The notes under the pieces: generated by a model
What the model was told of the DNA's origin: nothing
The model's input: only the letters and a program-made list of their open reading frames with translations
Database searches by the model: none
IMG/VR virus record: IMGVR_UViG_3300015050_001523
Location: 96,001-160,000 of that record
Strand: one strand, 5' to 3'
Origin: a virus
Lineage: Duplodnaviria > Caudoviricetes
DNA length: 64,000 nt
Made by a program: the position numbers and the translations under genes
In this document: piece by piece, positions 3,151 to 39,900 of the stretch
Layout of the letters: each line of letters opens with the position of its first letter
Position numbering within the stretch: position 1 is the first letter of the stretch

Positions 3151-3294
3151 TTCCTGCGACTGGACTCGAACCAGCATGTCCGCCTTAAGGAGCGTTAGTT
3201 TTACGCATGCAATTTCAATCAACGTATTATAACAAGGTAACGCGTATATGCTATAACATTGGTTGATAATAAAATTGCTTTAAACTACACAGGA
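3151..3294 (-). ncRNA. tRNA-like RNA with ~70-nt hairpin inserted in the D-loop
   Basis: Acceptor TCCTGTG/CGCAGGA, T arm GCTGG-TTCGAGT-CCAGT, D stem GTTT/AAAC interrupted by hairpin GCAATTT...AAATTGC; anticodon arm non-canonical. Confidence 0.7.
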
Positions 3295-22652: not shown

Positions 22653-22958
22653 TCAATCAATTTCCCAAATTTTGGATCGGCTTTTAAGGGCTTGCAATTT
22701 TTGATTCAGCAATTCCGAATGAAGCTCGGAAGCAGCCCAACGCAAGGTCCGAGCACGCTCCCTCATTTCGGCTTCATACACCCCGCGCTTATAGCCAGAC
22801 GGGCGATCATTCGTCAAAGTTTTCTCTTGGCTTTCAAGGCGATCAGCTTCTGCGCGCCACCTAACAACAAGATCTTCGATTTTGGAATTCATTGTCCTGA
22901 ATCTTTCTTTCTTTTTTATTTGTTGAAATCCATGGCCCCGCTTTTGGAGCCTCTGCAC
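22653..22958 (-). CDS. Coiled-coil hypothetical protein
   Basis: ORF after tRNA-Arg; true start probably MNSKIED. Confidence 0.55.
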   Translation of the reverse strand: MQRLQKRGHGFQQIKKKERFRTMNSKIEDLVVRWRAEADRLESQEKTLTNDRPSGYKRGVYEAEMRERARTLRWAASELHSELLNQKLQALKSRSKIWEID

Positions 22959-23027
22959 CAGATAGGATTCGAACCTATGACCTACGGCTTAGAAGGCCGT
23001 TGCTCTATCCAGCTGAGCTACTGATGC
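22954..23027 (-). tRNA. trnR: tRNA-Arg(TCT)
   Basis: ACGGC-CTTCTAA-GCCGT anticodon arm; TTGACT-N17-TATACT promoter just upstream. Confidence 0.95.
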
Positions 23028-31304: not shown

Positions 31305-31419
31305 TGAGGATAGGCGAGATAAAGGAAAGACCAAGGGGCTCTGCCAAGAACCAAGGTCACTATTTCCAGGAACACGCAAGCTGGCAGGCTTTCTCCCGGG
31401 TTCGAATCCTGGATCCTCA
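31305..31419 (+). ncRNA. tRNA-like RNA (acceptor plus T arm, ~80-nt non-canonical interior)
   Basis: TGAGGAT/ATCCTCA stem stacked on CCGGG-TTCGAAT-CCTGG; internal CTGCCA/TGGCAG and GAAAG/CTTTC helices. Confidence 0.65.
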
Positions 31420-38299: not shown

Positions 38300-38459
38300 A
38301 CCTAAAGGCGCATTACGCGCCTTTTCTTCTTTGCCAAAAACATTTATTAATTAATAAAAATTCTTCATGCACAAGGCATGCCAAGGCGCCAAAGGCGCGG
38401 CATGAAATTAAAGATCGATTTGAGGTTGCATCTTGATTTGGATAGGTTATCCTTGGAGT

Positions 38460-38705
38460 ATGGGAAAGACGCAACGAAACCGGAAGCAGCAGTCCAAGGG
38501 CCAAGAAATGACCCGAGCCGCCGCCCGAGCATACATGGTTCGAAACCTCAAGGATTACACCGATCGAATCAGCGGCGATGTCAATCTGACCCGCCTCGCC
38601 GAGTCATGTTGTCAAGCTTTCAATTGTAACCATGATGGTGGTCCCCTCGATCAAGAGGATCATTGGATTTGGGATGTTACCGCGGATTTCTCAAATATCC
38701 GGTAA
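38460..38705 (+). CDS. Cassette ORF, leaderless
   Basis: TTGCAT-N16-TATCCT-N6-ATG. Confidence 0.7.
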   Translation: MGKTQRNRKQQSKGQEMTRAAARAYMVRNLKDYTDRISGDVNLTRLAESCCQAFNCNHDGGPLDQEDHWIWDVTADFSNIR

Positions 38706-38712
38706 AACCCAT

Positions 38713-38943
38713 ATGACCACAATCCTAATGTTTTTCGTGGGAATCGTTGTTGGCACAATGATTGGCTGGATTCTTGGCTGGAGCCTCATTGTTATTTGTA
38801 GCTATCCTTTGGAATGGCTCCGAAGGCGCAAGCGACTCAAGGAATTTGAGCGCGAGGAGCGCGAAAAAGAAAATGATTTGATCCTCAACTTGGATCCTCA
38901 ACTTCTAACCGAGCTAATTCAAGCATTCCGAAACCAAAAGTAA
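38713..38943 (+). CDS. Small membrane protein
   Basis: N-terminal TM segment then charged tail. Confidence 0.6.
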   Translation: MTTILMFFVGIVVGTMIGWILGWSLIVICSYPLEWLRRRKRLKEFEREEREKENDLILNLDPQLLTELIQAFRNQK

Positions 38944-39058
38944 AAAAATCAAACGAAAAAATGGCGAATTTTCGCCATTTTTTGCTTAAGGTATCAGGTT
39001 ATTAATTAATTAATCTTAAGAATGCAAAAAATGTTCCAAAGGATTTCCTTTGGAACAT

Positions 39059-39160
39059 TGCACCAAATAGGATTTGAACCTATATCCCTCCAGACAACGC
39101 TGGTAGCACTTAATTCTTGCAAAAATCAGTGCAGTGCTTTACCCATTAAGCTATTGGTGC
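39059..39160 (-). ncRNA. Atypical 102-nt tRNA (8-nt anticodon loop and 33-nt extra arm, or tRNA-Ile(GAT) with ~30-nt insertion)
   Basis: GCACCAA/TTGGTGC acceptor, GCTT-AATGGGTA-AAGC D arm and ATAGG-TTCAAAT-CCTAT T arm are all canonical. Confidence 0.75.
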
Positions 39161-39163
39161 GAT

Positions 39164-39298
39164 TTAAATTGCCCAGTCCCAAAAAGAACTTGACAAAAGA
39201 TAAAGCGCGAAAAGGCACATTCCAAAAACAGCGCAGGTTGCAACAACCATTGTCCAAGTAATAATGTCTGAAATGAGCATTTGGGTGGAGACCTTCAT
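39164..39298 (-). CDS. 44-aa membrane peptide, leaderless, co-transcribed with the atypical tRNA
   Basis: MKVSTQMLISDIITWTMVVATCAVFGMCLFALYLLSSSFWDWAI; TTGCGC-N16-CATCAT-N7-ATG. Confidence 0.6.
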   Translation of the reverse strand: MKVSTQMLISDIITWTMVVATCAVFGMCLFALYLLSSSFWDWAI

Positions 39299-39374
39299 AT
39301 GCTTAATGATGGCAGAAAAAATCAGAAGCGCAAGCCATTTTTTCGTTTGATTTTTTGGCAAAAATTTAAATAAA

Positions 39375-39399
39375 AAAGGGAGCCCGACCGGCTCCCTTT
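39375..39399 (-). terminator. Rho-independent terminator
   Basis: AAAGGGAGCC-GGTCG-GGCTCCCTTTTTT on the minus strand. Confidence 0.8.
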
Positions 39400-39900
39400 C
39401 TCGCATGTCTTTCCAGGCTGTCAAGCATGCCAAGATTTGATCAAAACTAGATTGTTCATGCTGAAACTTTCTAGCCTTTAGCTTGTCTTTCCAAGCTGTC
39501 AAGCATGCCAAGATTTGATCAAAACTAGATTGTTCATGCTGAAACTTTCTAGCCTTTAGCTTGTCTTTCCAAGCTGTCAAGCATACCAAGATTTGATCAA
39601 AACTAGATTGTTAATGCTGAAACTTTCTAGCCTTTAGCTTGTCTTTCCAAGCTGTCAAGCATATCTTTTTAAGATCCAGGTGCTATTATGCCGGATAGCC
39701 GCCTTTAAGACTGTTATTCCAAGTTAATCCCGACCAAGTGTGCAAAACAGCCAAAAAGTTTGGTCGAATGCTTGTCTTTCCAAGCTGTCAACCCTTAGAC
39801 TTGCGTCACAGGCTTTAAGAAGCTGTCCGCCGACTTTTCGGCGGAGCTAAGAGTTAGTTTTATCTGGACCATTCCAGTCGAGCCATTGGCTCTAATACAC
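39400..39900 (-). ncRNA. Candidate large structured RNA
   Basis: ORF-poor; serial hairpins (GAGCC-AAT-GGCTC, CTGGA-ATGG-TCCAG, CCGCCGA-AAAG-TCGGCGG, five GGAAAGAC hairpins); terminator at the 3' end. Confidence 0.55.
39406..39663. repeat. 78-bp tandem repeat, 3.3 copies, plus an extra core at 39770-39790
   Basis: Units start at 39406, 39484, 39562 and 39640; the minus-strand core GACAGCTTGGAAAGACAAGC forms hairpin GCTTG-GAAAGA-CAAGC. Confidence 0.95.

Follow-up and report, generated by a model that had tools for sequence, protein, structure and literature searches.

How should a tRNA gene be understood when its acceptor, D and T arms are intact and some 30 additional bases lie between them where the anticodon arm is expected, i.e. 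as a decoder with an unusual loop, as a tRNA interrupted by an intron, as a tRNA-shaped RNA with another role or as a relic? The question is raised by a 102-nt gene at 39059-39160 (minus strand) in the 64,000-nt stretch of phage DNA analysed here, hereafter the window, which corresponds to bases 96001-160000 of a 322.5-kb virus record with an estimated completeness of 93%. The phage encodes T4-type rIIA and rIIB as well as a Gp23-type capsid protein, and its host is presumably bacterial, considering the intrinsic terminators and the occurrence of rIIA/rIIB in T4-type phages.

The first-pass annotation of this DNA had read the locus as a 102-nt tRNA with textbook acceptor, D and T arms, which is confirmed on the minus strand by a match to the tRNA family RF00005 at 56 bits, for a gathering score of 29, in cmscan. 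This match extends over the full model (positions 1-71) and a 33-nt insertion is placed in the anticodon loop. Numbering along the 102-nt gene follows the relation tRNA position p = window coordinate 39161-p; the discriminator A is at 39059 and no CCA is encoded. The 5' part of the body (39136-39160) comprises the 5' acceptor strand (39154-39160), U8-A9 and the D arm (39136-39151), with all pairs Watson-Crick and A14, G18G19 and A21 present, and the 3' part (39060-39083) comprises the T arm (39067-39083), with the T-loop motif GGTTCAAATCC, and the 3' acceptor strand (39060-39066). The acceptor stem GCACCAA/TTGGTGC forms seven Watson-Crick pairs, the D arm GCTT-AATGGGTA-AAGC has a four-pair stem closing the central stretch as its loop, and the T arm ATAGG-TTCAAAT-CCTAT has a five-pair stem and the loop TTCAAAT. 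All 16 stem pairs of these three arms are Watson-Crick, the conserved bases U8, A14, G18G19, A21, G53, T54, T55, C56, A58 and C61 are all present, the A15/U48 pair accompanies G18G19, and all damage is restricted to the anticodon region. As the first-pass annotation had proposed, the gene is therefore a tRNA-derived one with an aberrant middle, about 30 extra bases standing between intact arms.

Regarding automated detection, a default ARAGORN run missed the gene, which was recovered by a strict acceptor-plus-T-arm scan and by ARAGORN with introns allowed (-i). The latter called a tRNA-Gln(ttg) with a 30-nt intron at 33/34, an unusual position, so that the anticodon has to be considered ambiguous. 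In the window, the T-loop motif GGTTCRANNCC occurs 13 times for 0.6 expected by chance, and the gene at 39059-39160 is the last of nine minus-strand tRNA-type genes spread over the early region, where it is solitary.

Both drawings of the middle that had been offered in the first-pass annotation can indeed be made, with one correction. The arm CTGCA-CTGATTTT-TGCAA (39117-39134, minus strand, positions 27-44) consists of four pairs and a C-A mismatch, which had been left out of that description, and is followed by a 33-nt remainder containing CCAG/CTGG; once 30 nt are removed, the stem CTGCA/TGGAG, with one G-G mismatch, closes a 7-nt loop. The minimum free energy fold, unconstrained or with the tRNA body enforced, contains a hairpin A (39106-39132, minus strand, positions 29-55) that overlaps and excludes the 8-nt-loop arm, namely a stem of 11 pairs that is interrupted by one bulge and capped by the loop UGCA, in which G34-A35-U36 are predicted to pair with A47-U48-U49 (pair probabilities 0.55-0.99). 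Further 3', hairpin B, CCAG-CGTTGT-CTGG (39090-39103, minus strand, positions 58-71; pair probabilities 0.88-0.90), has a 6-nt loop (CGUUGU) that is not anticodon-like. When the three body helices (acceptor, D and T) are enforced, the fold combining hairpins A and B is computed at -29.2 kcal/mol, with pair probabilities mostly >0.86, the 8-nt-loop-arm fold at -24.0 to -24.8 kcal/mol, i.e. 4-5 kcal/mol worse, with stem pair probabilities of 0.006-0.008, and the open-loop 'intron' fold at -16.1 kcal/mol. Taken by itself, the insert does not exceed its shuffles in stability (z = -0.61), the whole 102-nt RNA compares to shuffled sequence at z = -1.77, and the fold with both hairpins is a prediction rather than evidence of design.

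In none of the registers does the gene combine a five-pair stem, a 7-nt loop, U33 and a purine at position 37, as would befit a functional decoder. All eight ways to excise 30 contiguous bases, which leave CTGCA/TGGAG and a 7-nt loop, yield U37 together with the G-G mismatch, whereas among 82 reference tRNAs, drawn from the ordinary ones of this phage, two related phages and T4, position 37 is A in 76, G in five, C in one and U in none, i.e. a purine in 81/82. Excision of 29 nt, following a MAFFT alignment, restores G37 but leaves an 8-nt loop, and excision at 37/38, the canonical intron position of archaeal and eukaryal tRNAs, gives the loop CUGAUUC, with U37. An 8-nt loop, CUGAUUUU, can be drawn without any excision, on the mismatched stem described above, which is predicted to be scarcely populated. 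The RNA encoded at 39059-39160 is without a standard anticodon loop and conventional decoding is impossible. The extra arm of class II tRNAs is about 10-24 nt long, starts two bases past the anticodon stem and usually goes with a three-pair D stem. An assignment to this class was considered and rejected, the 33-nt remainder having 10 unpaired bases before CCAG/CTGG and the D stem having four pairs, as in class I.

Concerning the origin of the gene, the identity proposed in the first-pass annotation, tRNA-Ile(GAU), is plausible as an ancestry, positions 8-36 including CTGAT matching a related-phage tRNA-Ile(GAU) and both sequences continuing as ...GCACT...CTGAT. The D arm is identical at 19/20 positions to the tRNA-Ile(GAU) of the related phage G033 (L089:14593-14666), the acceptor at 6/7 to the phage's own tRNA-Ile(tat), and the best T4 match of the single-sequence covariance model R1 is the T4 tRNA-Ile; the gene also has A73, C4-G69 and U12-A23, which we take to be IleRS identity elements. 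The 3' part is identical at 23/25 positions to the phage's own tRNA-Arg(tct) (22954-23027). With the tRNA-Ile(GAU) of G033 and the T4 tRNA-Ile, the gene has in common the acceptor, D and T arms, the tertiary bases and C32-U33-G34-A35-U36; unlike them, it has about 30 extra bases after U36, no purine 37, no clean five-pair anticodon stem and a GAU predicted to be buried in a helix. No copy of the insert was found elsewhere in the genome, where only short AT-rich chance matches occur. An internal duplication, UGCAAGAAUUAAG vs. UGGAGGGAUAUAG (9/13 matches), was considered and is not significant given the number of possible offsets. An intact tRNA-Ile(GAU) gene is present elsewhere (genome 177561-177635), so the copy at 39059-39160 would be free to decay.

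The gene belongs to a compact minus-strand unit, which supports the first-pass placing of the tRNA-like gene behind a 44-aa TM peptide gene in the same cassette: a small hydrophobic ORF and the tRNA-like gene share one promoter-to-terminator unit, as judged from the bracketing terminators and the apparently shared promoter module. An intrinsic terminator at 39372-39402, detected by a terminator scan, closes the preceding minus-strand unit and marks the start of the cassette. It is followed by a putative promoter module (39305-39357), made of an A-rich tract, a -35-like TTGCGC (39333-39328), a 17-nt spacer and a -10-like ATCATT (39310-39305), then, after six nucleotides, by the ATG at 39298 of a putatively coding ORF of 44 codons with a hydrophobic core (39164-39298; codons 39298-39167, TAA 39166-39164), which is the C-terminal part of a listed ORF and for which no homologue was found. 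Three nucleotides (ATC) separate this ORF from the 5' end of the tRNA-like gene. At the other end, a second intrinsic terminator (39030-39059), seen in the terminator scan and in the sequence as a 13-pair stem then TTTT, begins at the discriminator base itself. The promoter module (A-tract and GCTTGC) belongs to the repeat family D17 of the cassette array, and a strict sigma-70 scan does not call a promoter for this cassette. The ORF may be leaderless, as the neighbouring cassette (38441-38463) has the identical layout of -10 box, six nucleotides and ATG. The presence of a -10-like box, exactly six nucleotides and ATG in two adjacent cassettes (38441-38463 and 39296-39310) suggests that small genes of the array are made as leaderless mRNAs.

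Between the small units of the array, a repeated module is found that consists of a terminator hairpin, a palindrome TTATTAATTAATAA, a GCGCCAAAGGCGC hairpin, an A-rich tract and a TTGCAT-type -35 box. PeSL cassettes are promoter-terminator stem-loop modules found in the hyperplastic regions of T4-type phages (PMC2839356, PMC4122927), and a setting of this type is encountered here, with the repeat families D1-D8, the terminators and both rIIA and rIIB. As in PeSL cassettes, the small genes of a hyperplastic region are each flanked by a repeated module of terminator hairpin and early promoter in a phage with rIIA and rIIB; unlike them, the array appears to have its own repeat sequence (TTATTAATTAATAA, GCGCCAAAGGCGC) and one of its payloads is a tRNA-like RNA. 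The GC content is 45-52% over 28-46 kb of the window vs. about 33% for the genome, which suggests that the cassettes came from, or were exchanged with, phages of higher GC. Nearby, a symmetric hairpin at 38956-38983, whose two sides bear an A-run and a T-run, respectively, lies between convergent plus- and minus-strand units and looks like a bidirectional terminator. The sequence GGTTCGAAACC at 38537 was considered as a tRNA and rejected as it lies within an ORF.

The phage possesses 38-39 tRNA genes. None of the 37 other tRNAs encodes a 3'-CCA, so its absence from the gene at 39059-39160 is normal here; no CCA-adding enzyme was found in the phage genome. Besides, the first-pass view that the gene is one of several odd tRNA-like genes of the phage holds with respect to an element at 3151-3294 and to T-loop modules at 31399 and 31526. 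The element at 3151-3294 (minus strand) is 144 nt long, with a perfect acceptor stem and T arm and a large insert replacing the D/anticodon region; it abuts a tRNA-Gly and is called by ARAGORN -i as a tRNA-Asp(atc) with an intron of 59. In the strict acceptor-plus-T-arm scan of the genome, it is the one other long element. Matches to plastid ycf2 were dismissed as antisense images of tRNAs.

Homologues were sought by several routes. In viral contigs, neither an exact 26-mer of the 5' half nor a gapped D-arm...T-loop pattern gave a match; in metagenome contigs, neither did the gapped pattern nor a 22-mer of the 3' half, and the 22-mer gave none in genome contigs. Blastn against INPHARED returned no homologue for a 4-kb region and, for the gene alone, nothing beyond matches of the T arm (tRNA-Asn, Ser and Lys, E ~0.9). 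Model R1, applied to 37 capsid-related IMG/VR records and to further stretches including T4, detected ordinary tRNAs only, and a search of 27 related records with RF00005 for long tRNAs yielded two analogues and no orthologue. Searches via rIIA and the AAA ATPase found no relatives, the rIIB search only relatives at <=48% identity, the cassette-motif scan one unrelated GC-rich contig, and for the products of neighbouring ORFs neither homologues nor exact copies were found. With no homologue found, neither covariation nor purifying selection since the rearrangement is in evidence.

In the public run X1, one 151-nt contig is identical to the locus, without variation. The RNA run X4 gave no contig at the locus. 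In the public run X2, from an aquatic metagenome, a relative of about 90% identity is represented by contigs that extend over the two flanking regions and break off at either edge of the tRNA-plus-terminator block, at a depth of 2-5; this is no more than a hint that the block is dispensable or swappable, the low depth being another possible cause. Contigs of this relative also switch to unrelated sequence at 38705/38722, and 62 nt (38881-38942) are replaced by 19 other letters; the changes at 38705-38722 and 38880-38943 are cassette-level swaps between close relatives.

In the phage G033, which belongs to the same capsid clade (MCP 61% identical), an independent 97-nt tRNA-like gene was found at L087:439-535 (minus strand, 33.6 bits), the body of which is nearest to tRNA-Glu(UUC) and the 27-nt insert of which is predicted to pair with the former anticodon. 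Searched with its own model, R2, this analogue led to ordinary tRNA-Glu-like genes only. G033 also carries at L089:2057-2130 (plus strand) a tRNA of normal length with the anticodon UCA, labelled 'SeC' by ARAGORN, which is a possible opal reader. A further case occurs in a 359-kb phage contig (L094:3886-3977), where a tRNA of about 92 nt combines the anticodon loop CUUAUAA (UAU) with an additional hairpin that has a CUGAUAA loop, its Rfam score being only a weak tRNA-Sec match.

Among the possible interpretations, those in which the gene yields a decoding tRNA fare poorly. +1 frameshift-suppressor tRNAs (sufD, sufJ and similar) have 8-nt anticodon loops, a likeness found in one drawing of the present gene, so that a working decoder with the loop CUGAUUUU and a very long extra arm could be envisaged, either as an Ile tRNA or as a +1 frameshift (quadruplet) reader. 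Its arm stands exactly at the place of the anticodon arm and offers C32, U33 and GAU as in Ile tRNAs. This is nonetheless improbable, and the first-pass proposal of such a decoder is not supported: the fold is disfavoured, with only four pairs and a C-A mismatch, a predicted occupancy of 0.006-0.008 and a cost of 4-5 kcal/mol relative to hairpin A, the anticodon is followed by a U (0/82 reference tRNAs), the 33-nt variable region, which has no counterpart in the suppressor tRNAs, exceeds known class II arms and goes with a D arm of class I type, and the adjoining ORF showed no AAUC or comparable target in frame. In eukaryal and archaeal pre-tRNAs, introns pair with the anticodon, and the present insert of about 30 nt, located 3' of the anticodon, predicted to pair with it and to lengthen the helix, recalls this situation; both cmscan and ARAGORN model these additional bases as inserted into the anticodon loop, a similar insert exists in G033, and the phage encodes RNA ligases, one of Rnl1 type (54.7 bits) and two or three of Rnl2 type (genome 71154-71774, 35777-36376, 165831-166394 and 56383-56871), which could rejoin the halves left by some endonuclease into a 72-nt tRNA, Ile-GAU or Gln-UUG. 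Such an intron-containing tRNA is even less probable than the 8-nt-loop decoder, and the splicing of a 30-nt insertion from tRNA-Ile(GAT) put forward in the first-pass annotation is not supported. Every 30-nt excision leaves U37 and the G-G mismatch, unlike archaeal and eukaryotic introns, which are spliced by bulge-helix-bulge or ruler-type recognition, no bulge-helix-bulge could be drawn on inspection of the body-enforced fold, neither a tRNA splicing endonuclease (PF01974) nor RtcB was found in the phage genome, no group I or group II family matched (E up to 1), self-splicing would need more than 30 nt, a group I core (P3-P9) alone taking about 200 nt or more, and no description of short introns in phage tRNAs was found in the literature. 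Group I introns do interrupt bacterial tRNAs in the anticodon loop, for instance the Azoarcus pre-tRNA-Ile, also of Ile type, with about 200 nt and a catalytic core (PMC13168695), whereas the insert here measures 30-33 nt and matches no intron family; it could be at most the scar of a group I element. A bolder version, with only a very slim chance of being right, would have the anticodon-side inserts of this Ile-type gene and of the Glu-type gene of G033 represent a protein-dependent tRNA intervening sequence of a bacterial virus, pairing with the anticodon and silencing the tRNA until excision by a nuclease and resealing by Rnl1/Rnl2; if true, tRNA repair enzymes would double as a splicing or switching system. 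Equally remote is a divergent member of the two-arm tRNA-Ile design seen at L094:3886-3977, in which a UAU anticodon arm is accompanied by an extra hairpin showing the ordinary Ile loop CUGAUAA. The size class (93-102 nt), the Ile-like body, the two hairpins between D and T arms and a GAU-containing loop are shared, but the anatomy largely refutes such membership: there is no UAU arm, GAU lies in the first arm with the loop CUGAUUUU instead of CUGAUAA, the second loop is the 6-nt CGUUGU, and the L094 member does not stand out among the matches of R1.

Two other readings, a non-decoding RNA and an inert relic, account better for the locus. Tentatively, and with somewhat less than an even chance of being right, preference is given to a tRNA-shaped RNA that is processed out of a peptide-tRNA co-transcript, does not decode and has some role. 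After descent from tRNA-Ile(GAU), the anticodon arm would have been rebuilt by about 30 extra bases. The early-type promoter of the cassette would drive a short peptide-tRNA co-transcript, of which the gene would be the 3' part and which would end at the terminator abutting the discriminator; host RNase P would cut 3 nt past the ORF stop codon, the 3' trailer would be trimmed and a host enzyme would add CCA, as needed for all tRNAs of the phage. The product would be a stable tRNA-shaped RNA, its former anticodon GAU hidden within a long capped helix next to which a small second hairpin would stand. Its most likely role would be that of a tRNA mimic, to which host or phage proteins that recognise tRNAs would bind, be it as a decoy or as a partner, and alternatively it may be a plain processing and stability module for the peptide mRNA. 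This reading draws on the intact body, the lack of a canonical arm in any register, the predicted dominance of hairpins A and B, the bracketing terminators, the shared promoter module, the other insert-bearing tRNA-shaped genes, the G033 analogue and T4 RNA C and D, and it is weakened by the lack of a homologue, the z-scores of -0.61 and -1.77, the intact tRNA-Ile(GAU), the gap at the block in the X2 relative and the failure of the promoter in the strict scan. Nearly as likely is an inert relic: within a cassette that has been shuffled, a redundant copy of tRNA-Ile(GAU) would have had its anticodon loop disrupted in a single complex event, such as the imprecise loss of a mobile intron or an endonuclease-driven recombination, and might still be transcribed and folded with no selected role. 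In line with this possibility, no homologue is known from the collections searched, the insert folds no better than random sequence, either version of the stem has a G-G or C-A mismatch with U37 in all 30-nt excision products, the genome keeps an intact Ile(GAU) gene, and the block is uncovered in the X2 relative. The location in a hyperplastic, recombination-prone cassette array points the same way, considering PeSL shuffling (PMC2839356, PMC4122927), as does the finding that in G033 another tRNA bears, at the corresponding position, an insert of unrelated sequence, which is expected if anticodon loops recurrently break. Against a relic, the damage is confined to the anticodon region, with 16/16 body pairs and every conserved tertiary base intact, and a tight and complete expression unit is kept, with its 3-nt spacer and a terminator flush with the discriminator; this is weak evidence, since a very recent event would explain both.

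The closest comparison for the non-decoding RNA is offered by T4 RNA C and RNA D, small stable RNAs of the tRNA cluster (rnaC and rnaD, species 1 and 2) that carry tRNA-like elements, have no anticodon and are of unknown role (PMC3014915, PMC9697503). Like them, the present gene would specify a small phage RNA that is tied to tRNA genes, tRNA-like and devoid of a usable anticodon. Unlike them, it matches the tRNA model at 56 bits, whereas rnaC and rnaD match it only at the T arm and have no sequence relation to it, R1 matching only true tRNAs in the T4 stretch; and rnaC and rnaD are late RNAs inside a tRNA cluster, whereas the gene at 39059-39160 stands alone, following a small ORF in a cassette of early type. 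Judging from these sequences, the two resemble each other in kind and are not members of one family. Escape from host anticodon nucleases is documented for phage tRNAs in which the anticodon loop is altered (PMC10264068, PMC11555353), which makes a role as a decoy conceivable.

Ever since T4 RNA C and D became known, the tRNA look-alikes of phages have lacked an explanation, and the present gene is probably one more of them. If functional, it would be a clean example, with a perfect tRNA top half and a buried anticodon, travelling as payload in a mobile promoter-terminator cassette, and would point to decoys for tRNA-cleaving host defences or to RNase P-driven mRNA processing. As far as can be judged now, it ranks among the ordinary oddities of a tRNA-rich jumbo phage (giant, T4-like), and its value is mainly cautionary: gene finders miss such a gene or give it arbitrary anticodons (Gln by ARAGORN, Ile-type GAU by eye), and it should not count as a decoding tRNA. 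Elsewhere in the same capsid clade, the phage G032 has a tmRNA gene (RF00023, 110.9 bits) at L086:171-627 (G032:C1:12970-13426) and, one base past it, a 104-nt tRNA-like gene with a 39-nt D-loop insertion and a shortened anticodon loop.
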